Source of the DNA: Bdellovibrionales bacterium
GTDB taxonomy: Bacteria > Bdellovibrionota > Bdellovibrionia > Bdellovibrionales > JAUICD01
Assembly: GCA_965262715.1 (NCBI GenBank)
Contig: OZ253553.1
Location: 96,001-160,000 of the forward strand
Reading direction: 5' to 3'
Length of the DNA: 64,000 nt
Shown piece by piece: positions 15,145 to 63,290 of this stretch. Position numbers and translations under genes: made by a program. Each line of letters begins with the position of its first letter. Position 1 is the first letter of the stretch. Below the pieces are notes generated by a model that ran no database searches, had not been told where the DNA came from, and saw nothing but the letters and a program-made list of their open reading frames with translations.

Positions 15145-17064
15145 CCTGACTTCGACGGTTTATGTTCGGTATTGGTTTTGTAACATTGATGGTTATAGGA
15201 TTTTGGAGTAAGTTTTCGATGTAGTGCCTAGTAACACACCATGTCAGATTATTTTTATTTTTATTTTGACTTTTTTTTTAATAAGCATTAAATTATTTTT
15301 ATGTTTGTAAGAATCAAAAGCACACCAAACAGTCCAAGGCAGTCAGTTCAGATCGTTGATTCTATCCGTTATGGCAATAAAGTTCGCCAAAAGATCATCC
15401 GTCATGTCGGAGTGGCTCAAGATGAGGATGAGCTATTTCGTCTTCAAGAGCTTGGAGAATTCATCAAAGCTAAACTAACAAATGAAAATCAATTATCTTT
15501 TTTTGCTCCGGAAGAGATTTCTAAACAAGTGATTGAGTCCAAGTTTCGTCATTGCAATAAACCCTTAAAAGTAGATCTTAAGAAACTAAGGGAAGATCAA
15601 AGAGTCATTGTAGGTATTCATGAGGTTTATGGAGCTATGTACAAGGAATTAGGTTTAGATCGCATTTTACCAGTGAGTCGTTATCATTCATCACATTGGG
15701 TTTTATTTCATACAGTGATGGCTCGGATAGCTAATCCTCAAAGTAAAAGAGAGAGCAGTCGATTTTTAGAAGAGGATTTTGGAGTTCATATTTCGTTAGA
15801 GAAGATTTATCGCATGATGGATCGTTTAGATAGCAAAAGGATAGATAAGATAAAGAGACTGGCAGGTCAAGTGGCACAAAAGGTTTTTAAAGAGCCTTTG
15901 AAAGTTTTGTTTTTTGATTGTACGACACTGTATTTTGAATCAATTATTGAAGATGATTTAAGACAAAGAGGTTACAGTAAAGATGCTAAGTTTAAAGAAT
16001 CTCAAGTGTGTTTAGCAGTCGTTGTGACCAAAGAAGGTTTTCCTGTCAGTTACGAGACTTTCCCGGGTGCTATCTTCGAGGGTCATACCTTAAATCCAGT
16101 GATAAAAGAGATGAAGTCTAAATATAACTTAGAACAAGCTATTTATGTCGCTGATAGAGGAATGTTAAGTGAAGATAATTTAAAAGCACTAGAAGATGAG
16201 AATCTTCATTATATTGTAGGAGCTAAGCTTAAGAAATTACCAAAAGTAAAACAAGAGCTTGTATTAGATAAGTCAAAGTACAAAATTGTCAGTAAACAAG
16301 AAGGTTTCAAGATTCAATCATTAGAAGATAAAGATAATAAGAGGAAAGTGATAGTTTGTTATTCTTATAAGAGAGCGGAGAAAGATCGACATGATCGTCA
16401 ACAAACTATAGATAGTTTAGTTAAGAAACTCTCAAAGGCTCAAGATGTGAAGACTTTATTAAACAATTACGGTTATAAGAAGTATTTAAAAGTCACAGGC
16501 AAGAAACAAAAGCTTTCAGTCAATGAAAATCGAGTCAAAGAAGATCAAAAGTGGGATGGTTTGTTTGGAGTCATAACAAACCTCAAAGATATGGATGATT
16601 TAGACATTATTAGCCAATATAAGGGGTTATGGCAAGTCGAAGAAACATTCCGGATAGCTAAGCATGATTTAAAAATACGTCCTATATTTCACTGGACATC
16701 AGATCGGATCAAAGCACACATAGCCATTGCTTTTATCTGTTTAGTCTGTATAAGACACTTAGCTTACAGAATTAAGATACAATACCAATCCTGTTCACCG
16801 GAAGTTATACGAAATGCTTTAATCCATGTACAGCATAGTTTATTAGTAGATCAAACCAATAACAGAAAGTACTCTATACCTTCAAATATAAGTAAGGAAG
16901 CTCTGAAAATCTATCAGATTATGGGACTTAAGCACTCTACAACACCTTATCTTATTGAATAAAAATACACTTAATACATAACTAAAAATCAATTGTAGTG
17001 CCTATGATGTAATGTATCATCCAATGATCCCAGTAACTTATAAGTTTAAACCGTCGAAGTCAGG
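15145..17064 (+). mobile_element. IS1634 family insertion sequence (1920 bp)
   Basis: Perfect 18-bp terminal IR CCTGACTTCGACGGTTTA; 553-aa DDE transposase; 87-bp target duplication. Confidence 0.95.
15301..16962 (+). CDS. IS1634 family DDE transposase
   Basis: FFDCTTLYFE, GYSKD, VADRGM, LWQVEETFRIAKHDLKIRPIFHW. Confidence 0.95.
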   Translation: MFVRIKSTPNSPRQSVQIVDSIRYGNKVRQKIIRHVGVAQDEDELFRLQELGEFIKAKLTNENQLSFFAPEEISKQVIESKFRHCNKPLKVDLKKLREDQRVIVGIHEVYGAMYKELGLDRILPVSRYHSSHWVLFHTVMARIANPQSKRESSRFLEEDFGVHISLEKIYRMMDRLDSKRIDKIKRLAGQVAQKVFKEPLKVLFFDCTTLYFESIIEDDLRQRGYSKDAKFKESQVCLAVVVTKEGFPVSYETFPGAIFEGHTLNPVIKEMKSKYNLEQAIYVADRGMLSEDNLKALEDENLHYIVGAKLKKLPKVKQELVLDKSKYKIVSKQEGFKIQSLEDKDNKRKVIVCYSYKRAEKDRHDRQQTIDSLVKKLSKAQDVKTLLNNYGYKKYLKVTGKKQKLSVNENRVKEDQKWDGLFGVITNLKDMDDLDIISQYKGLWQVEETFRIAKHDLKIRPIFHWTSDRIKAHIAIAFICLVCIRHLAYRIKIQYQSCSPEVIRNALIHVQHSLLVDQTNNRKYSIPSNISKEALKIYQIMGLKHSTTPYLIE

Positions 17065-34796: not shown

Positions 34797-36136
34797 TTGT
34801 ATCACCAGAGGGCCTGGATATAGTCAGTTGGACGAAAACATCTGAACTCATAGATGTTCAAATCAATACTGAAAACGGACAGATTTGCATCCCGCACACT
34901 AAAGCTGGTCAATGGAGTCCTACACAAAATGTAAATGCACCAAGTGCTGAAGACCCAGTAGAAGGTAATGCATGGATTGTTGTTCGATTAGATGGCAAGA
35001 GTTATGCTGCCCCTTATGATTGGCTAAGCTCTGGAGAGCCCTGTCATATGCTAGATGTAGAAACTCTTAGTAACTTGTACGAACAACTACCACAACGCAC
35101 AGGTGTAACTGAACTAGCTAGATGGAAGCCTCTATCTGGAGATAGAATTGGCTTTCTAGTGTCAGGGCTTGCTAAAAATGGCTTAGAAAATGTCAAAGAA
35201 AGATCAAATATGTTAATTGTAACACTTCCTGATGCAAATGGAGAGATACCTACAGAAGTGGAAGAGCCTTGTTCTCAAGATCCTGAAAGTTCATTTTGTT
35301 TAGAAAACTGCCATGTTCCAAATAAAATAGAAGTTATAAGTAGTATAGCAGAAAGAAATTCCGATTCTCTAACAAAAGCTCATCAACTTTATACAGATAG
35401 ACAATCAAATGGATCTGAGTCAATAGCTAATACAGATGAACGCTGGGAATTTATGGATAGAGTTGCTCAAGTACTTCACGGTATAGATGATCGCTTTGGC
35501 TATACATGTACGAATGGAAACTGCAGTGATATCTCTACATATCAGATTGCCTACAAATGTGAAGAAGACCCTGAAGTAGAAGACCCTGAAGTAGAAGACC
35601 CTGAAGTAGAAGACCCTGAAGCAGAAGACCCTGAAGCAGAAGGTTCTGAAGCAAGTGAAAACATTGCCACTGTCAGTATTCTTACACAAGACGGTGAAAC
35701 TCAATGGCAACTTGATGTCCTTCAAGATACAACTGCAACAACTACTACAACTGTTATAGCTGCAACGACGACAACTGTTTCAACGACCACAACAACTATA
35801 ATGACCACAGCAAGCCTGGATATTCATAGCTGGGTATACCCAAGAGAAGGATCTACAGATTACTTTGATTGTTTTTTCTTTCCAGAGTCATCTTCTTGCC
35901 AACCAACAGATGATGATGGTGACGGTGATGGTGATGGTGATGATGATCAAGGGTTGCTTGATACACCATGCACTCAGGAGCAAGTGGATGATGGCTATGG
36001 TAATCACTCTGAAAAGAATGAATGTCTTCCAAGATGTTTTTCTTTCGCACGGAGTAATGCAAATGGAGTAGAGACTGGAGAAGGTGATGAGTGTGACGAT
36101 ACTTCCAATTACCATATCCTACCTATACAAAACACT
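34797..36136 (+). repeat. 1340-bp direct repeat, left flank of IS1634 element 2
   Basis: Matches 38093-39432 (offset 3296); the ORF track gives identical translations for both copies. Confidence 0.95.
35564..35653 (+). repeat. 15-bp coding tandem repeat GAAGACCCTGAAG(T/C)A x5 plus one degenerate unit (also at 38860-38949)
   Basis: Read directly; encodes EDPEV/EDPEA. Confidence 0.9.
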
Positions 36137-38092
36137 CCTGAGTTTGACACTTAATTTGAATTTTCGTGATATTTTTTTCAAGGAATGTTGTATTTATAGT
36201 CATTAGCGGTTATTGTGTTTGTATTTTGGTCAAAAAGTGTAGTGTACTTATTTATCATACACTACGCGTCATATACCTTATTTTCTTTTATTTTTTATAT
36301 TTTTCTTGTAATGTATTTTTATGTTCATAAGGTCTACAAGAAATCCGAGAGGAGACATATATTATCATCTTGTTGAGAGCTACAGATTAGGTTCTCAAGT
36401 GAAGCAAAGGATTCTAATGTCTTTAGGTAAAGCCGCGGATAAGGAAGTTAACTTGAAGAAGCTTCTAGAAGTATTATCTAAAGAGTTAGAGATAATTCCT
36501 GCTAGTAAGTTATTAAAAGAGATTGATGTTAAAGACACTTTTATATTAGGTCCCTTACTTATAATAGATGCTATTTTCAAACAATTAAATCTCTATGAAT
36601 TATTAACAGATTTAAAACAAAAGCACCCTAAAGTACAATTTGATTTTGTTAAGATTATTTTTACATTGGTTATAAGCCGTTTTGTAGAGCCATGTTCTAA
36701 GCTTAAAGTATTTTCACACTGGCAGAAGTTATTTTACCCTGATTTTTTAGAAGAGGAGCTTCATCTTCAAGACATTTATCGTTCTTTAGATATTCTAAGT
36801 AAGCATAAGGAAGATATAGAGAAGACTCTTTATACACAAGGTAAGTCTCAGTTAAGTTTTTTCAATGAGTGTGATGTTATTTTGTATGATTTAACGACAT
36901 TGAGATTTGAGAGTACCCGAGAGGATTTAGATAATCTTCGAAGATTTGGTTATAGCAAAGAGAAGAGGAGTGATTGTACCCAGGTGGTATTTGGACTTTT
37001 AGTAGATAGAGAAGGTATGCCCTTAGGCTTTGATGTTTATCCTGGAAATACCTTTGAAGGTAAAACCATACCTTCAGTTATGGAGAAACTAAAAAAGAAG
37101 TTTAAGATCAGAAGATTTATATTAGTAGGAGATAGAGGTTTATTTTCTAATGAGAATTTACAATCTGTAAAAGCAAAGGGAGATGAATTTATAGTAGGAT
37201 TAAAGCTAGGTTTATTAAAGGATCGTCATTCAGAGATATACAATTTAAAGAATTTTAAATTTATAAATGAAGATTTAGCTATATACGAGACGAGTTATAA
37301 TGATAATCGTTGTATAATTACCTGGTCAAGAAAGAGAGCAGAACGAGATAAGAAAGTAAGAGAAGATATTCTATCTAAGTTAGAAGATAAGCTTTCAAAA
37401 TCGTCATCAAGCACAAAGGATTTTGTATCTAATAGCAATTATAAGAAGTATATTATTCATCCTAAGAGTAAAGGCAAGCCTACTTTAAATAAGTCAGCCA
37501 TAGAACAATCAGAGAGGACAGATGGTTTTTTTGGAATCATTACAAATACAGATAGTTTAAGTTCTGAAGAGATTATAACGAACTATAAGCAATTATGGAA
37601 GGTAGAGAATTCATTTAGAGAATTGAAAGGTACATTAAAGACACGTCCTATGTTCCACTGGACAGATAAGAGGATCTTAGGACATTTAGTTGTGTGTTTT
37701 TTATCTTACTTATGTGAGGCTTATTTTTCAAAGAAGTTACATCAGAGAAACATCACATTAAAAGATAAAGCAATTACAGACAAGAGAATAAAGTCAAGGC
37801 CATTGAGTGTGGCAGAAGCTATGTCAAAGCTGAAAGAAGTACGAGCTATACCTGTGAGGGTAAAGGATAAGACACTTTGGATCAGAACAGATATTAACGG
37901 TAACAATGCTGATGTATTTAAAGCTATAGGAGCAAAGATCCCATCAAAACAACTTAAAGTAGAATCTACTTAGACCTACAAACAATCTCTTAAATCTCTA
38001 CCACAAAATCAAAATGTAGTGGTACAAAATCACACATCCACTGTAACTAACTAAAATAACTTAACTTTATTTTCGCAACTGTCAAACTCAGG
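36137..38092 (+). mobile_element. IS1634 family insertion sequence (1956 bp)
   Basis: Terminal IR CCTGAGTTTGACA / TGTCAAACTCAGG; 550-aa DDE transposase; 1340-bp flanking duplication. Confidence 0.95.
36321..37973 (+). CDS. IS1634 family DDE transposase
   Basis: LYDLTTLRFE, FGYSKEKRSD, VGDRGL, LWKVENSFRELKGTLKTRPMFHW. Confidence 0.95.
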   Translation: MFIRSTRNPRGDIYYHLVESYRLGSQVKQRILMSLGKAADKEVNLKKLLEVLSKELEIIPASKLLKEIDVKDTFILGPLLIIDAIFKQLNLYELLTDLKQKHPKVQFDFVKIIFTLVISRFVEPCSKLKVFSHWQKLFYPDFLEEELHLQDIYRSLDILSKHKEDIEKTLYTQGKSQLSFFNECDVILYDLTTLRFESTREDLDNLRRFGYSKEKRSDCTQVVFGLLVDREGMPLGFDVYPGNTFEGKTIPSVMEKLKKKFKIRRFILVGDRGLFSNENLQSVKAKGDEFIVGLKLGLLKDRHSEIYNLKNFKFINEDLAIYETSYNDNRCIITWSRKRAERDKKVREDILSKLEDKLSKSSSSTKDFVSNSNYKKYIIHPKSKGKPTLNKSAIEQSERTDGFFGIITNTDSLSSEEIITNYKQLWKVENSFRELKGTLKTRPMFHWTDKRILGHLVVCFLSYLCEAYFSKKLHQRNITLKDKAITDKRIKSRPLSVAEAMSKLKEVRAIPVRVKDKTLWIRTDINGNNADVFKAIGAKIPSKQLKVEST

Positions 38093-39432
38093 TTGTATCA
38101 CCAGAGGGCCTGGATATAGTCAGTTGGACGAAAACATCTGAACTCATAGATGTTCAAATCAATACTGAAAACGGACAGATTTGCATCCCGCACACTAAAG
38201 CTGGTCAATGGAGTCCTACACAAAATGTAAATGCACCAAGTGCTGAAGACCCAGTAGAAGGTAATGCATGGATTGTTGTTCGATTAGATGGCAAGAGTTA
38301 TGCTGCCCCTTATGATTGGCTAAGCTCTGGAGAGCCCTGTCATATGCTAGATGTAGAAACTCTTAGTAACTTGTACGAACAACTACCACAACGCACAGGT
38401 GTAACTGAACTAGCTAGATGGAAGCCTCTATCTGGAGATAGAATTGGCTTTCTAGTGTCAGGGCTTGCTAAAAATGGCTTAGAAAATGTCAAAGAAAGAT
38501 CAAATATGTTAATTGTAACACTTCCTGATGCAAATGGAGAGATACCTACAGAAGTGGAAGAGCCTTGTTCTCAAGATCCTGAAAGTTCATTTTGTTTAGA
38601 AAACTGCCATGTTCCAAATAAAATAGAAGTTATAAGTAGTATAGCAGAAAGAAATTCCGATTCTCTAACAAAAGCTCATCAACTTTATACAGATAGACAA
38701 TCAAATGGATCTGAGTCAATAGCTAATACAGATGAACGCTGGGAATTTATGGATAGAGTTGCTCAAGTACTTCACGGTATAGATGATCGCTTTGGCTATA
38801 CATGTACGAATGGAAACTGCAGTGATATCTCTACATATCAGATTGCCTACAAATGTGAAGAAGACCCTGAAGTAGAAGACCCTGAAGTAGAAGACCCTGA
38901 AGTAGAAGACCCTGAAGCAGAAGACCCTGAAGCAGAAGGTTCTGAAGCAAGTGAAAACATTGCCACTGTCAGTATTCTTACACAAGACGGTGAAACTCAA
39001 TGGCAACTTGATGTCCTTCAAGATACAACTGCAACAACTACTACAACTGTTATAGCTGCAACGACGACAACTGTTTCAACGACCACAACAACTATAATGA
39101 CCACAGCAAGCCTGGATATTCATAGCTGGGTATACCCAAGAGAAGGATCTACAGATTACTTTGATTGTTTTTTCTTTCCAGAGTCATCTTCTTGCCAACC
39201 AACAGATGATGATGGTGACGGTGATGGTGATGGTGATGATGATCAAGGGTTGCTTGATACACCATGCACTCAGGAGCAAGTGGATGATGGCTATGGTAAT
39301 CACTCTGAAAAGAATGAATGTCTTCCAAGATGTTTTTCTTTCGCACGGAGTAATGCAAATGGAGTAGAGACTGGAGAAGGTGATGAGTGTGACGATACTT
39401 CCAATTACCATATCCTACCTATACAAAACACT
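38093..39432 (+). repeat. 1340-bp direct repeat, right flank of IS1634 element 2
   Basis: Matches 34797-36136. Confidence 0.95.
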
Positions 39433-40263: not shown

Positions 40264-41125
40264 ATGAAGCGTATTATTTCTAACTTAAGTAAAAACTTAG
40301 GTAGTATAAGTTATTTACTTTTGATGACATTCATATCACTTTGCCTATTAAGATGTAGTCATCTTGAAACTTCTGATGAAGATGACATAAGAGGATATAG
40401 CAACCTTGGAGCTCTTGAAGCAAAACAAGGAAATATAAGTAAGGCTAGAGAGCTTTACAAAAAAGCTTGTGATGGAAATAAAGTGTTAGGATGTACTAAC
40501 CTTGGAGCTCTTGAAGCAAAACAAGGAAATATAAGGAAAGCTAGAAAGCCTCTTAAAAAAGCCTGTGATGAAAATGACATGCTAGGGTGTATCATCCTTG
40601 GAACTCTTGAAGAAGAGCAAGGAAATATAAGGAAAGCTAGAAAGCCTCTTAAAAAAGCCTGTGATGGAAATGACATGCTAGGGTGTATCAGCCTTGGATT
40701 TTTTGAAGAAAAACAAGGAAATATAAGCAAAGCCAGAGAGCTTTATAAAAAGGCATGTGATGGAAATGACATGCTTGGATGTACTAACCTCGGATATCTT
40801 GAAAGAAAACAAGGAAATATAAGCAGAGCTAGAGAGCTTTATAAGAAAGCTTGTGATGGAAATGAAATGTTAGGATGTACTAACCTTGGAGCTCTTGAAG
40901 CAAAACAAGGAAATATAAGCAAAACTAGAGAGCTTTATAAGAAAGCTTGTGATGGAAATCACATGAAAGGATGTACTAACTACTAACCTCGGATATCTTG
41001 AAGAAAAACAAGGAAACATAAGTAAGGCTAGAAAGCTTCTTAAAAAAGCTTGTGATGGAAATGAAATGTTAGGATGTACCAACCTTGGAGTTCTTGAAGT
41101 AAAGAAAAAAAATAAAACCAAATGA
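40264..41125 (+). pseudogene. Sel1-like/Hcp-type Cys-rich repeat lipoprotein (32-aa repeats), frameshifted by a 7-bp duplication
   Basis: 96-bp tandem repeats (NLGxLExKQGNISKARELYKKACDGNxMLGC). TACTAAC is duplicated at 40974-40987; removing it extends the ORF to TGA at 41123-41125. Confidence 0.85.
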
Positions 41126-46153: not shown

Positions 46154-46376
46154 GATCTTATTGCATAAAAATTTAAGAATGAGATTTGTGAAAGACTTCT
46201 GAAATAGGACTAGGCTAGCGGCTTAGGGTAAATATCTCTTAAACTATTTTATTCTATAATAAAATCTTAAAATAATAGCAATACAAGGCGCGGGGGTTGC
46301 CTAGAGCCTATGGAAGATGCCTGACTTAATTCTCTAATCTTTTATATACTTCCTTAAATCTTTGTGCAACAAAGCC
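46154..46376. mobile_element. Family C MITE unit forming the outer end of the IS903-like element
   Basis: Degenerate inner IR gatcttattgcataaaaattta; the interior aligns with 59315-59558 and 63083-63290. Confidence 0.65.
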
Positions 46377-52906: not shown

Positions 52907-54070
52907 TTACTCCTTTCCTTTTTCTATAGCCTTAATAATTTTGTCTGCTCCATCAGAAAGATCATTTGCAGGAATGATATCAAGGCCACTTGATTGAAGA
53001 AGCTGTTTACCTTTTTGCACATTTGTACCTTCTAGTCGTACAACTAATGGAACATGAAGTTTCAAGTCTTGAGTGGCTGCAATAATCCCTCCTGCAATGA
53101 TATCACACTTCATAATGCCTCCAAAAATATTGACGAATATCCCCTTTACCTTAGGGTCCTTTAAGATAATCTTAAAAGCTTGAGTGACACTCTCTCTACT
53201 TGCAGTACCTCCCACATCTAAAAAATTGGCAGGCTCACCTCCATGGAGTTTTATAATGTCCATAGTCGCCATGGCTAGTCCCGCTCCATTAACAAGACAA
53301 CCAATTTCTCCATCTAGCTTGATAAAAGCTAGCTTGTACTTACTGGCTTCTAACTCCATGGGGTCTTCTTCTGTCTCATCTTTTAATTGCAATATATCTG
53401 GATGGCGAAAAAGAGCATTATCATCAAAACTCATTTTAGCATCTAAAGCAATTAACTGACCATCTTGAGTGACCACAAGAGGGTTGATTTCTAAAAGGGT
53501 AGTATCAAAATGCATAAAAGCATCATACAGGCCTTTTAAAAGACGAGTGGTTGCACTAGTTGGAATGTGGAGCTTAAAAGCTAATTGCCTTGCCTGAAAA
53601 TCCATCAAGCCAGTGTTAATATCTATATAAATATTATGTATTTTTTCAGGGGTTTTAGCAGCCACCTCTTCAATATTCATACCTCCCTGATCGCTTGCTA
53701 TTACAGCTACTTGACCCTTTGCATGATTAACAACTAAACTTAGGTAATACTCTTTTTGAATTTGGCAACCTGATTCGATATAGACTTTTTCCACAAGTTT
53801 TCCTTGAGGCCCTGTTTGTAAGGTGACAAGATTCATTCCTATCATTTGTTGTGAGATGGTTTTTACTTCATCTAAAGAGCGAGCTAGTTTGACACCACCT
53901 CCTTTTCCTCTACCACCTGCATGTATTTGTGCTTTGACAACCCAGCTTATTCCATCTAAACGCTTTGCTACTGTGCAGGCTTCATCAAGAGTACGAGCAA
54001 TTCCCCCATCTAATATTGGCACTCCAAATTTCTTTAAGATTTCTTTGGCCTGGTACTCGTGAATATTCAT
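52907..54070 (-). CDS. sucC: Succinyl-CoA synthetase beta subunit
   Basis: [42 protein letters not shown]. Confidence 0.97.
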
Positions 54071-54088: not shown

Positions 54089-54236
54089 CTGTATCACTAA
54101 AAATGAACTGGCCTCTGGCCATTTTTGGATAGTCAGCCTGACGATTTACATCGTCAGAAAATGCTGACTATCTCAAAAACCTGTTCATTTTTAGTAGGGA
54201 GACTCCCCTCGTTTCTTTACAGAATGTTAAGGAAAT
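54089..54236. repeat. Structured repeat family A (multi-stem hairpin plus two-hairpin tail)
   Basis: ctaaaaatgaac / gttcatttttag outer stem with nested stems; homologous to the 61003, 61587 and 61703 copies. Confidence 0.85.
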
Positions 54237-54300: not shown

Positions 54301-54400
54301 AAAATTGATTTTTAAGCCAAAGACGAGATCTTCCGCAGATGAGATCGCTTTTTGGCGATCTTATCGAGGACTTCGAGGATTAGCTTAAAATATCAATTTT
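54301..54400. repeat. Structured repeat family B
   Basis: aaaattgatttttaagccaa...ttagcttaaaatatcaatttt; near-identical to 61865-61963. Confidence 0.85.
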
Positions 54401-54785
54401 CAGCTTAAGGAAAACTTCTATTTCCTTTACTATCCACTCTCCTCCTATGTTTTCAAATAATTAAGTTTAGGAAGTTATAAACCATTCCCTTAGCCAATTT
54501 ATGATAGTTTAAGAAGGTTATTTTGAATATTTTTTAATGACTGCGTTGTTAAAAAGATTACCCCTTACTCGATGAATTAGGTTAAGTCTATATGCCATTT
54601 AAAAGCAAGTAAAAGATATGACCTTTTATATTTTTTTATTCACGGATAAATAAGTAAAAATAAACCTTAAAACACCTACAAAGAGATACCTACTTTTGTC
54701 ATTAAAATGACAAAAATAGTCACTTTTAGCACTGCGTCAAATCCTCTCCCTTGCACTGTGATTGAAAAACGACTGTTTTGTGATA

Positions 54786-59174: not shown

Positions 59175-59558
59175 AGCCTTGTTGCACAAATATTGACTTA
59201 TACTTAGTGTCACAGGTTGTGAACTAGTTGTGGTAAGCCACTTGTGGCGAGCCACCCCAAGTCAGAGTATTGTGAGATAAAGTTTTAAAAGAATTTTTAT
59301 TCTATAATTAATTAGGTCTTGTTGTATAAAATAAACATGTATAGGAGAGTTATGGTAGGCATCTGATCTAGTTGTGGCAAGCCACCTCAGGCCAGTACCT
59401 TATGAGACACCTTTTTAAAAGGATTTTATTCTATGTAAAATTATAAAGTCACAGTAGTACATGGCACGGGGGTCGCCTGCTAGCTAGTGAAGATGCCTAC
59501 CATAACTCTCTAACTTTTATATAAATGCTTCTTACCTTAATATTTGCGCAACAAATCT
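59175..59558. mobile_element. Compound family C MITE (partial unit 59175-59314 + full unit 59315-59558)
   Basis: IS903-type ends agccttgttgcacaaata / tatttgcgcaacaaatct; second left end at 59315; internal perfect 20-bp IR 59345-59364 / 59491-59510. Confidence 0.8.
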
Positions 59559-61002: not shown

Positions 61003-61151
61003 CTGTATCACTAAAAATGGTCTGGCCTCTGGCCACTTTCTGGTAATGACCCTGAAGGCTCACGCCTTCAGCAAATAGGTCATTACCTAGAAAGCCTGAC
61101 CATTTTTAGGAGGGAGACTACCTTCGTTGTTTAACATCATGTTAAGGAAAT
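61003..61151. repeat. Structured repeat family A, copy with tail
   Basis: 61008-61117 is identical to 61591-61700; starts right after the peptidase stop codon. Confidence 0.9.
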
Positions 61152-61222
61152 GTTTCCTTAAAATACATCCGGCAAACCGGCAGTCTGGCAATCTGTATCA
61201 GGCAATAAGGATTCTGTTTTAA
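61151..61222. repeat. GGCA-rich repeat (family D)
   Basis: ccggcaaaccggcagtctggcaatctgtatcaggcaat enclosed by a weak stem; 20 bp identical to 32904-32923. Confidence 0.7.
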
Positions 61223-61235
61223 ATTTTTTCACCTA

Positions 61236-61285
61236 AAAAATTTCCTCCCAAGCCCTGGCGGGTTTTAATAAAGGAGGAAATTTTT
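61236..61285 (+). promoter_or_regulatory. RBS-sequestering 13-bp perfect stem
   Basis: aaaaatttcctcc (61236-61248) pairs with ggaggaaattttt (61273-61285), directly before the ATG. Confidence 0.75.
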
Positions 61286-61585
61286 ATGACGATGAAAAAA
61301 TTTAAAACTTATCAAGTAGCAGTTCAATTTTATCATAAATCTAATAGCTTAAAATTAAGAGAACCTCTTAGAAATCAATTTCAAAGAGCTTCTCTAAGTA
61401 TTGTTCTTAACTTAGCTGAAGGTAGTGCTAAGTTAACACCAAAAGATCGAAGAAAATTCTATAGAATTGCTTTTGGATCATTAAGGGAGGTTCAAGCTAT
61501 ATTAGATATCATCAACCATATTGAACTCATCAACGAAGCTGATAAATTAGGTGCTTACTTGTACAAATTATGTCAAAATACATAA
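61286..61585 (+). CDS. Four helix bundle protein (TIGR02436 / 23S rRNA IVP / Avd-like)
   Basis: LRNQFQRASLSIVLNLAEGS...RRKFYRIAFGSLREVQAILD. Confidence 0.92.
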   Translation: MTMKKFKTYQVAVQFYHKSNSLKLREPLRNQFQRASLSIVLNLAEGSAKLTPKDRRKFYRIAFGSLREVQAILDIINHIELINEADKLGAYLYKLCQNT

Positions 61586-61586
61586 G

Positions 61587-61700
61587 TGTTTCACTAAAAA
61601 TGGTCTGGCCTCTGGCCACTTTCTGGTAATGACCCTGAAGGCTCACGCCTTCAGCAAATAGGTCATTACCTAGAAAGCCTGACCATTTTTAGGAGGGAGA
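61587..61700. repeat. Structured repeat family A, copy identical to 61008-61117
   Basis: Starts right after the four-helix gene stop codon. Confidence 0.9.
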
Positions 61701-61702
61701 TG

Positions 61703-61851
61703 CTGTTTCCCTAAAAATAAACCTGCCTCTGGCAGTTTTTGGGCAGCCAGCCTGAAGACTTACGTCTTCAAGAAAATGCTGACTGCCTCAAAAATCCGTT
61801 TATTTTTAGGAGGGAGACTCCCTTCATTTCTTTACAGAATGTTAAGGAAAT
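61703..61851. repeat. Structured repeat family A, diverged copy with tail
   Basis: ctaaaaataaac / gtttatttttag outer stem; same architecture with covaried stems. Confidence 0.85.
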
Positions 61852-61864
61852 CGCTGAGAGTGAA

Positions 61865-61963
61865 GAGTTGATGTTTTAAGCCAAAGACGAGATCTTCCGC
61901 AGATGAGATCGCTAAAAAGCGGTCCCATCGAGAACTTCGAGGATTGGCTTAAAACATCAATTC
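61865..61963. repeat. Structured repeat family B
   Basis: ttgatgttttaagccaa...ttggcttaaaacatcaa; homologous to 54301-54400. Confidence 0.85.
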
Positions 61964-61975
61964 AAAGCTTTCTAT

Positions 61976-63082: not shown

Positions 63083-63290
63083 GGTCTTGTTGCACAAAGA
63101 TTTATGGAATATGTGTATACAAGATAGAGTTATGGCAGGTTTCTGGAATAGGCCTAGGCCAGTGCCTTAGGAGATAAGGCTTGTATAAAATACTTTATTC
63201 TATAATGGACTCTTAAAATAATAGAAATACAAGACACGGGGGAAGCCTGCTGCCTATGGAAGAAGCCTGCCATAACTCTAGGTCTTAAAT
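63083..63290. mobile_element. Family C MITE with a truncated right end
   Basis: ggtcttgttgcacaaagattta left IR; internal IR 63125-63144 / 63261-63280; aligns with 46154-46376. Confidence 0.8.

Follow-up and report, generated by a model that had tools for sequence, protein, structure and literature searches.

Known systems and the repeat beside sucC

Among the short repeats that lie between bacterial genes, the REP/REPIN elements, which work by Bertels & Rainey in 2011 is said to have tied to mobilisation by RAYT, a Y1 HUH transposase, are non-autonomous, clustered, present in hundreds of copies, free of target duplication and built of hairpins whose stems carry compensated changes. Here, we describe a repeat that shares these features. 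It lies at positions 54089–54236 of a 64,000-nucleotide stretch (the window), which is positions 96001–160000 of the genome of a Bdellovibrionales bacterium (GCA_965262715.1, hereafter G000; single contig OZ253553.1, 2,939,090 bases, 33.6% G+C, 92.7% complete), and we call the repeat family to which it belongs family A. Whereas a REP is a hairpin of 20–40 bases or an inverted doublet of such hairpins, family A is a 150-base three-way junction with asymmetric ends that stands mostly in head-to-tail arrays; further, the sole Y1 gene of G000 is IS200-like and lacks flanking family A copies. The Rickettsia palindromic elements (RPEs), reportedly described by Ogata et al. in 2000 and 2002, resemble family A in being palindromic, 100–150 bases long, lineage-restricted, without a known transposase and housed in an AT-rich genome rich in insertion sequences (IS) and ankyrin genes. 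However, RPEs are known for in-frame insertion into protein genes, of which we found no convincing case among the 447 family A matches in G000, apart from insertions that break the genes of a small protein, IVP, considered below.

The miniature inverted-repeat transposable elements (MITEs) with terminal inverted repeats (TIRs), such as Correia/NEMIS, and the ERIC elements are likewise intergenic, non-autonomous and capable of being co-transcribed, and mini-elements with the family A head motif at both ends do exist here; family A itself, in contrast, has no TIR at its true ends, no target duplication and no IS with matching ends. With the IS200/IS605-derived PATE elements it shares subterminal hairpins and the lack of both TIR and duplication, but it has no target tetra- or pentanucleotide in the left flank, no orientation tied to replication and no TnpB. 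Integron attC sites and other folded single-strand sites offer a further parallel, in that they are recognised by their fold, keep their unpaired bases and form co-oriented arrays without target duplication, and in our case an IVP cassette is bracketed by fragments of the putative site. Yet G000 has no integron integrase, most family A copies are dispersed singletons, and the array spacers are not distinct cassettes, only the IVP cassette having that character.

The closest published parallel that we found is Coxiella burnetii's IVS (intervening sequence), which the published account presents as a 428-base selfish element of unknown origin, with a 28-bp terminal stem, an S23p open reading frame (ORF) and heptamer repeats upstream of that ORF (PMC4990558). 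Family A and such elements have in common a selfish structured element of unknown mobility, the same four-helix-bundle protein family, heptamers upstream of the ORF and complementary ends. They differ in that the 23S IVS elements sit in helix 25 or 45 of the 23S rRNA and are cut out by RNase III (PMC4990558), whereas family A is intergenic, has hundreds of copies and is, like every other genomic repeat, missing from the single 23S gene of G000 (3032 bases).

We propose, with a probability that we put at roughly 60%, that family A is a non-autonomous, lineage-restricted mobile repeat whose spread depends on its fold. It is most plausibly a variation on a known type of element, comparable to REP/REPIN, RPEs or attC sites, and not as a new RNA gene. 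The first-pass annotation, made from the letters of the window, had offered both a novel non-coding RNA motif and a REP/RPE-like element. The latter fits the hundreds of intergenic copies, the arrays, the insertion polymorphism and the lack of a matching Rfam family or IS, whereas a single novel RNA gene or motif with a cellular function is not supported. The family is undescribed in the libraries searched: Rfam, which the annotation had suggested consulting, gave 0 matches at gathering score over the whole window, the three weak matches near the element (E 0.23–4.7, to eukaryotic snoRNA and a viral miRNA precursor) all falling outside it, and full-text literature searches found no description.

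The fold, its conservation and the question of strand

Four copies, which form one repeat family (D5) with 62–100% identity, lie in the window:

54089..54236, plus strand (element-forward): copy 1, the flagged copy, with head CTGTATC at 54089–54095 and model end GGAAAT; boundaries set by information content along 248 left and 318 right unique flanks and by filled and empty sites
54096..54195, plus strand: three-way-junction core of copy 1, from the fold and pair-by-pair covariation
54096–54108 paired with 54183–54195, plus strand: P1, outer stem of copy 1
54109–54121, plus strand: P2, side hairpin of copy 1, loop TCT
54122–54137 paired with 54163–54179, plus strand: P3, long stem of copy 1, bulge at 54173
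54138–54157, plus strand: P4, apical stem of copy 1, loop TTAC at 54146–54149 (GUAA on the minus strand)
54196..54236, plus strand: sequence-conserved tail of copy 1, with GGGAGA...TCCC, the palindrome TTTACAGAATGTTAA (P6) and GGAAAT
61003..61150, plus strand: copy 2, of another subfamily; after it come a tail fragment in reverse complement, heptamer repeats of CCGGCA type and the IVP gene
61587..61699, plus strand: copy 3, 98% identical to copy 2, without a tail and abutting copy 4
61703..61850, plus strand: copy 4, head-to-tail with copy 3, with a C.A mismatch in P3

In each 148-base window copy, 7–8 unpaired head bases precede P1, which closes the three-way junction, and a 40-base tail follows; the junction holds the 5-bp P2, with its TCT loop, and a long arm in which P3, interrupted by a single bulge and an asymmetric internal loop, leads to the 8-bp P4, capped by a 4-base loop. 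More generally, the family A unit spans ~150–165 bases and consists of a conserved head CTGTTTCACTAAAAAT, a three-way-junction core of 38–39 base pairs with its side loop, and a tail that is conserved in sequence and ends in the palindrome and GGAAAT. The four stems take almost any sequence provided that they pair. All stems listed in the first-pass annotation are present at 54089, at 61003 (equivalently 61587) and at 61703. The window copies fold far below shuffled energies on both strands (z of −5.7 to −9.3 as RNA and −9.9 to −11.7 as DNA), and none of 200 shuffles folds as well under either set of parameters; since both strands fold equally well, energetics does not choose between them.

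A two-round nhmmer census of the whole of G000 (E up to 1e-5) gave 447 matches, 308 of them near full length and 261 of these unique. RNAalifold on the 261 unique copies predicted 39 pairs, in which 9259 of the 10,179 pair cells are Watson–Crick; the others are 275 G.T, as read on the reverse-complement (rc) strand of the element-forward orientation (the minus strand for the flagged copy), 198 A.C, 365 of other kinds and 82 gaps. The Watson–Crick share of pair cells is about 91–98%, and many pairs occur as three or four Watson–Crick types, for example, one in P1 (AT 90, GC 67, CG 57) and one in P3 (CG 102, GC 75, AT 43, TA 16).

Two further alignments draw on the sister genome G001, which belongs to the same genus, and on three small contigs (C1, C4 and C11) filed under G004, a genome of another genus. 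These contigs are 85–95% identical to G000 over kilobases and G004's own SucC is only 62% identical; hence, judging by their sequence, they probably come from a close relative of G000 and were wrongly binned. A MAFFT alignment of 53 copies, comprising all three tailed window copies and 50 near-full-length matches chosen from loci L020–L035 of the sister genome and the three contigs, has a two-sided, pair-keeping change in 28 of 38 predicted pairs. With two tail helices included, 95.2% of its cells pair, as against 83.4% in shuffles, and 344 cells are changed on both sides, as against 111 in shuffles (0 of 500 reach the observed value) and 9–46 when the partners were slid. This alignment also served to build a covariance model, which, applied to 80 loci listed by a pattern scan, gave 150 matches, all in G001 and 143 of them distinct. 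These are 97.6% paired (81.0% when shuffled), with two-sided change in 29 of the 38 pairs and in 1028 cells (348 when shuffled, 32–99 in slid controls). The G001 alignment was fitted to the model, which favours structure; the MAFFT-based result is without that bias. The compensatory substitutions that the first-pass annotation had proposed thus exceed all shuffles and slid controls in both sets, and the bulges that it had described as kept persist, together with the asymmetric internal loop and the three-way geometry, across subfamilies in both genomes. Its two tail hairpins did not hold up, as neither shows convincing covariation (two-sided change in 2 of 4 and 0 of 6 pairs in the 53 copies). 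The fold rather than the sequence is what family A keeps.

The age of the changes bears on why it is kept. Nearest-neighbour pairs that are 1–3 differences apart (n=22) carry 19 changes in 78 paired columns and 22 in 78 unpaired columns, and of the 19, 10 break a pair and none is two-sided. Neighbours 9–15 apart (n=52) show 41 two-sided changes, 38 of them pair-keeping, as against 6.3 expected, and those 16–30 apart (n=85) show 187 as against 42 expected; paired columns changed 214 times and unpaired columns 395 times in the former class, and 706 and 1082 times in the latter. Young changes that fall equally on paired and unpaired columns, combined with an excess of two-sided changes among the old, are the pattern expected of a fold needed for propagation: resident copies seem to decay freely, and the lineages that multiply keep the fold.

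Matched changes could also arise with no selection on the fold, by intrastrand template switching that corrects quasi-palindromes, or by gene conversion, in an old palindromic repeat. This would suit pairing that is almost purely Watson–Crick with few wobble intermediates, and it would also suit the homogenisation of the arrays. One of these has three copies against four when G000 and a G000-like, ~90% identical contig are compared, and the copies at matched positions, identical at 125–126 of 152 bases beside a gene that is 94% identical, are of different subfamilies, which points to replacement or concerted evolution within the array and not to change in place. However, template switching should erase the bulges, the asymmetric internal loop and the three-way geometry that every subfamily retains in both genomes, and the closest copies lack one-step double changes (0 of 19 changed pairs). 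Moreover, stems change less than unpaired columns at moderate divergence, as counted above. Template-switch homogenisation, which the first-pass annotation had named as the explanation that could overturn its own, is therefore disfavoured, and we regard an origin of the covariation by mutation as very unlikely.

The signals for the strand that is read agree in direction but are modest, and they point weakly to the minus strand. The alifold energy is lower on the rc strand (−45.8 versus −32.3). Beyond the cell counts given above, G.T exceeds A.C on this strand by 201:140 nearest-neighbour events (p=0.001) in the 261 copies and by 69:45 in G001. In the 261 copies the excess is confined to P1 (70:29) and P3 (125:65), being absent in P4 (50:54) and opposite in P2 (30:50). 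The single C.A mismatch, in the long stem of the 61703 copy, reads as G.U on the minus strand, as had been noted earlier. The apical loop, which the first-pass annotation had taken as GNRA on that strand, is so in 154 of 261 G000 copies and 73 of 143 G001 copies. The strict motif is thus not general, but most of the other loops (GTTA, GGTA, GATA, GACA) keep the initial G and the final A, both of which are nearly constant; the side loop is AGA on the rc strand (TCT forward) in 243 of 261 copies. The annotation's argument for the minus strand is weakly supported, given also that the two strands fold equally well, that the G.T excess is mild and that wobble pairs stay below 3% on either. A structural RNA would be expected to show more wobble, and pairing of DNA is at least an equally good match for this frequency. 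Simple promoter and terminator scans turned up 2 promoter-like sites where 2.0 were expected, and the weak 5-bp side hairpin was the sole terminator-like site.

The rc strand also tends to run with the neighbouring genes: at loci between genes of the same direction it is co-directional with them in 71 cases versus 43 (p=0.011; 40 versus 21 for singletons), that is, in 62%, with 38% of loci the other way. The flagged copy is one such case, its first base lying near the sucC start, as previously observed, with 18 bases between it and the start codon and with its rc strand in the sense of that gene:

52907..54070, minus strand: sucC, with ATP-grasp_2 and Ligase_CoA domains; start at 54070

Upstream of sucC on the same strand lies mdh, and both sucC and sucD are confirmed by Pfam. 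In two genomes of the same family, mdh, sucC and sucD are contiguous, with mdh–sucC spacers of 14 and 56 bases and mdh products 73% and 70% identical to that of the window. The corresponding spacer in G000 is 1667 bases and contains the flagged copy and a second repeat. The flagged copy thus sits within an ancestral mdh-sucCD operon that is now pulled apart. A G001 copy that seemed to lie within the sucCD operon was rejected as such, being located beyond the terminator in a convergent spacer. Separately, a diverged copy lies at 1042569–1042711 of G000, ~100 bases upstream of the single 23S rRNA gene; its rc strand has the same sense as the rRNA, so that the precursor transcript probably includes it.

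These placements, together with the co-directionality, the G-first and A-last loops and the G.T excess, would agree with copies that are host-useful RNA modules in minus orientation, acting as mRNA stabilisers, processing sites or attenuators, with selection on each copy. Selection of this kind is at odds with the youngest differences, which fall equally on paired and unpaired columns and break pairs in half of the cases, and RNA pairing sits poorly with the scarcity of wobble, the lack or reversal of bias in P2 and P4, and the equal folding of the two strands. Over a third of the loci, as counted above, are in the opposite orientation, and selfish DNA typically shows such copy numbers, arrays and restriction to a clade. 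We therefore consider it unlikely that family A serves its host in this way.

Copies, ends and insertion

The family A matches total 62,612 bases, or 2.1% of G000, and form 223 clusters, of which 128 hold one copy, 52 hold two and the others are arrays of up to 16. Within arrays the copies mostly share one orientation, with periods fixed at 158, 231, 235, 257 or 431 bases and spacers that are identical tandem units. The family is intergenic: 369 of the 447 matches overlap no ORF of ≥80 aa, though such ORFs cover 79% of G000, and the five that lie fully inside ORFs are in short or repeat-made, spurious ones. The consensus has one ORF, and no use of that frame was seen. A second structured repeat family, D9, occurs in the window at 54310–54406 and 61874–61970 and has 84 matches in G000; 34 of these follow a family A tail at 0–200 bases in the same orientation, compared with 2 in the opposite orientation, so that the two families are often joined in a composite.

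BLAST found family A in 3 of 61 related genomes, and the covariance model found it in 3 of 151 genomes across the order, viz., G000, G001 and the G000-like contigs in G004; it was not found by that model in two further relatives, G002 and G003, or in the 146 others searched. Among the matches listed from a pattern scan of 185,579 species genomes, a collection that may leave out G000's own records, 79 of the 80 loci are in G001 and one is in an unrelated metagenome-assembled genome, on a Reichenbachiellaceae contig that fits the DNA pattern but fails the covariance model and was treated as a chance match. In these searches, family A is restricted to one genus-level clade.

Information content jumps at CTGTTTCACT and fades after ATGTTAAGGAAAT into T-rich sequence, giving a sharp 5' and a fuzzy 3' end; the left flank is without information content, and the sequence at one extreme end is not the inverted repeat of that at the other. 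Across 219 pairs of unique flanks, target-site duplications show no excess over shuffled pairs for k=3–8 at 14 offsets (0–13). Filled and empty sites corroborate this: one copy interrupts a paralogue of the IVP gene and, compared with two intact paralogues, leaves only 2 bases unaccounted for at the junction, with no duplication. Another small repeat, of which at least seven copies are empty, is occupied at one and the same point by two copies of family A, with 12 empty-site bases replaced or partly retained. Such sites put the true 3' end 10–20 AT-rich bases beyond GGAAA, and that of copy 1 probably lies at the same distance past its model end. Between G000 and the ~90% identical contigs filed under G004, presence/absence differences occur at three places. 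The contigs of four sequencing runs gave breaks at the repeat and repeat-inflated depth only, with no joint giving an empty site.

The sharp 3' end of the minus strand (...GUGAAACAG) and its variable 5' end, along with the many partial copies, one site with a flank duplication of ~21 bases and the loop and wobble asymmetries, recall short interspersed (SINE-like) retroelements, whose minus-strand RNA would be reverse-transcribed from that end with flank duplications. The partial copies, however, include both 5' and 3' partials, and most filled sites are without duplication. Further, G000 has only three reverse transcriptase (RT) genes (one of group II intron type, one fragment and one retron II-A), and these were rejected as partners since none is multi-copy or linked to family A beyond one chance neighbour. 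Retro-mobility is thus extremely improbable. At one locus (G000 2649241–2652813, L042), a 590-aa fusion of a nucleoside-deoxyribosyltransferase-like domain with a retron-type RT (best PADLOC models RT_II-A and NDT_II-A) has a family A copy just downstream.

For family A as a non-autonomous mobile repeat, we envisage that one strand, as single-stranded DNA or possibly RNA, would fold into the junction, and that a factor supplied in trans would read its shape and a few invariant bases. This factor would copy or move the unit into AT-rich intergenic DNA without target duplication, often beside or into existing copies and the IVP cassette, so as to build co-oriented arrays, which would then grow and homogenise by unequal crossing-over. 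If only units that fold propagate, subfamilies would arise by matched changes while resident copies decay neutrally. The invariant single-stranded positions would, in such a scheme, mark likely protein contacts.

Several observations weigh against this proposal. The gene-orientation bias could reflect function or selection at the RNA level, whereas orientation relative to the GC-skew replichores shows no bias (115 versus 103 loci, p=0.46), as distinct from single-strand HUH transposons such as IS608, which are reported to be biased relative to replication. The ~21-base duplication at one filled site and two further filled sites that replace 12–23 bases depart from clean insertion. Most copies are old, with a median of 14 differences to the nearest unlinked copy, and hence current activity is unproven. 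Finally, the mobilising enzyme was not found among the candidate families searched in G000. None of 14 multi-copy gene groups (IS30, IS4 in three groups, IS5, IS256, IS3, IS1595 and PD-(D/E)XK) includes an IS with ends matching family A, and the single Y1 transposase gene (PF01797, G000 1839505–1839864), considered as a RAYT, was rejected, as it is IS200-like, with GC-rich flanking hairpins of its own and no family A copy in its flanks.

Other searches for the machinery gave a similar picture. G000 carries IS30-like (27), IS4-like (23, 11 and 4), IS5-like (15), IS256 (14), IS3 (10) and IS1595 (6) elements and several PD-(D/E)XK Transposase_31/PDDEXK_2 groups, and IS genes are not enriched near family A (IS30 0 of 27, IS4-like 2 of 40, IS5 1 of 15). 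An IS or HUH gene with CTGTWTCMCTAAAAA ends, as the first-pass annotation had suggested, was sought in G000 and none was found. There are 0 matches to PF01548, the DEDD transposase of IS110, and no TnpB in G000, where one weak zinc-ribbon match lies inside a 1343-aa ORF. The head motif occurs 217 times in G000 at ≤1 mismatch, and the 41 occurrences outside family A matches are related small repeats, GCCTCTCRAGGCRA microsatellite variants or chance. An autonomous element flanked by inverted head motifs was rejected, since the genes enclosed by the 20 such pairs share no similarity. Mini-elements of ~50 bases, with inverted head motifs around a short stem, were observed in G000 (2258388–2258439, 52 bases) and G001 (L046, 2670–2716), and they may be relics of a TIR-type ancestor. 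Of 122 tail palindromes in G000, 117 are in family A, and the other five, which were checked for a dif-like role, give no clear terminus site.

The IVP cassette

Between two of the family A copies in the window lies a gene of the family found in 23S rRNA intervening sequences:

61286..61585, plus strand: IVP gene, 99 aa, four-helix bundle (PF05635 23S_rRNA_IVP, TIGR02436)

G000 has 12 copies of this gene, 7 of which are within 300–500 bases of family A, where the background for all ORFs is 14.9% within 300 bases and 418 of 2326 within 500 (p=6e-4, before correction for the 30 families tested). The arrangement in G000 is mixed: three cassettes have no family A copy nearby, and both orientations occur. 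In G001 the link is tighter, with all 14 IVP genes within 500 bases of family A and, in 13 of the 14, an antisense orientation for whichever family A copy is met first inside or downstream of the gene. PF05635 has no match in G002 or G003, and its phyletic pattern is thus that of family A, within one clade. Taken 30 columns at a time, the nine intact G001 cassettes are 87–99% conserved over a stretch that opens ~95 bases before the start codon and closes ~25 bases after the stop, whereas the adjoining family A copies are 0–68% conserved; hence, the cassette spread recently beside different resident copies. Five G001 cassettes are cut short by a family A copy, after residues 13, 69 or 75. The cassettes have CCGGGAT/CCGGCAA-type heptamer repeats on one or both sides, and at least 6 of the 14 in G001, as well as the window's own, begin with a reverse-complement fragment of the tail palindrome, TTTCCTTAACATnnTGTT, and the same fragment opens the family A copy on the opposite side.

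The IVP leader, at 61205–61290 of the window and at G001 loci L197–L205, forms a long predicted hairpin in which AAAATTTCCTCC pairs with the Shine–Dalgarno/start region GGAGGAAATTTT; it is conserved in both genomes and, from its sequence, looks like a translational switch. Just upstream of it are CCGGCAA/CCGGGAT heptamer repeats in variable number.

The bracketing of the cassette is the trace to be expected of a crossover just past the tail palindrome, and this raises the alternative that family A is a folded recombination site of a cassette system, akin to integron attC or the folded single-strand phage sites used by Xer, with IVP as its cassette or partner and the arrays as rows of sites. 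The co-oriented arrays, the retention of structure and bulges but not sequence, the lack of target duplication, the close association and recent spread of the cassettes in G001, and the joint presence of family A and IVP in G000 and G001 and joint absence from G002 and G003 would all fit such a system. That co-occurrence rests on one clade, however, and the outer stem does not appear to match the consensus of the attC R box. The dispersed single copies make up more than half of the clusters, the array spacers are identical tandem units and not different cassettes, and the association in G000 is partial and of mixed orientation. The integron integrase was also rejected: G000 has only two PF00589 genes, one full Xer-like recombinase and one fragment, for which the best NCBIfam models are XerD/XerC-like and which score 75 and 52 bits, far below the integron-model cut-offs of 265–435. 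On balance, a cassette system of this kind appears improbable.

A further reading, for which we see only a small chance, treats family A and the PF05635 (S23p/Avd-like) cassette as two parts of a single selfish system, related to the rRNA intervening sequences but free-living. The IVP protein, small and nucleic-acid-binding, would read the folded junction or the tail palindrome. With a host enzyme, such as the only Xer-like recombinase working on a single strand that has folded, it would cause cassette and gene-less repeats alike to insert site-specifically.

The window carries other repeats and mobile genes. The 94-base repeat D6 occurs at 46240–46333, 59416–59509 and 63186–63279 and matches the left end of the IS5-like element with 15 copies; these copies are likely to be solo IS5 ends or a MITE derived from IS5. 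Transposase genes of IS4-like type are located at 15301–16962 and 36321–37973. A 3.3-kb direct duplication (34797–35096 and 38093–38392) includes 15-base coding repeats GAAGACCCTGAAGTA, and a separate 96-base tandem array of ~8 units spans 40271–41122.

For the genomes that carry it, family A accounts for ~2% of the sequence in the case of G000, along with many contig breaks and many spurious ORFs, and it shows how the ancestral mdh-sucCD operon was split. More generally, small structured repeats such as REP, RPE, ERIC and Correia are common, most of them lacking a known mobilising machinery, and family A is an unusually clean case: two complete genomes each hold hundreds of copies, ~29 of 38 pairs in the branched fold show matched changes, and there are clean filled and empty sites. 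The link to IVP is a testable lead both on what moves such repeats and on what the genes of the S23p family do.

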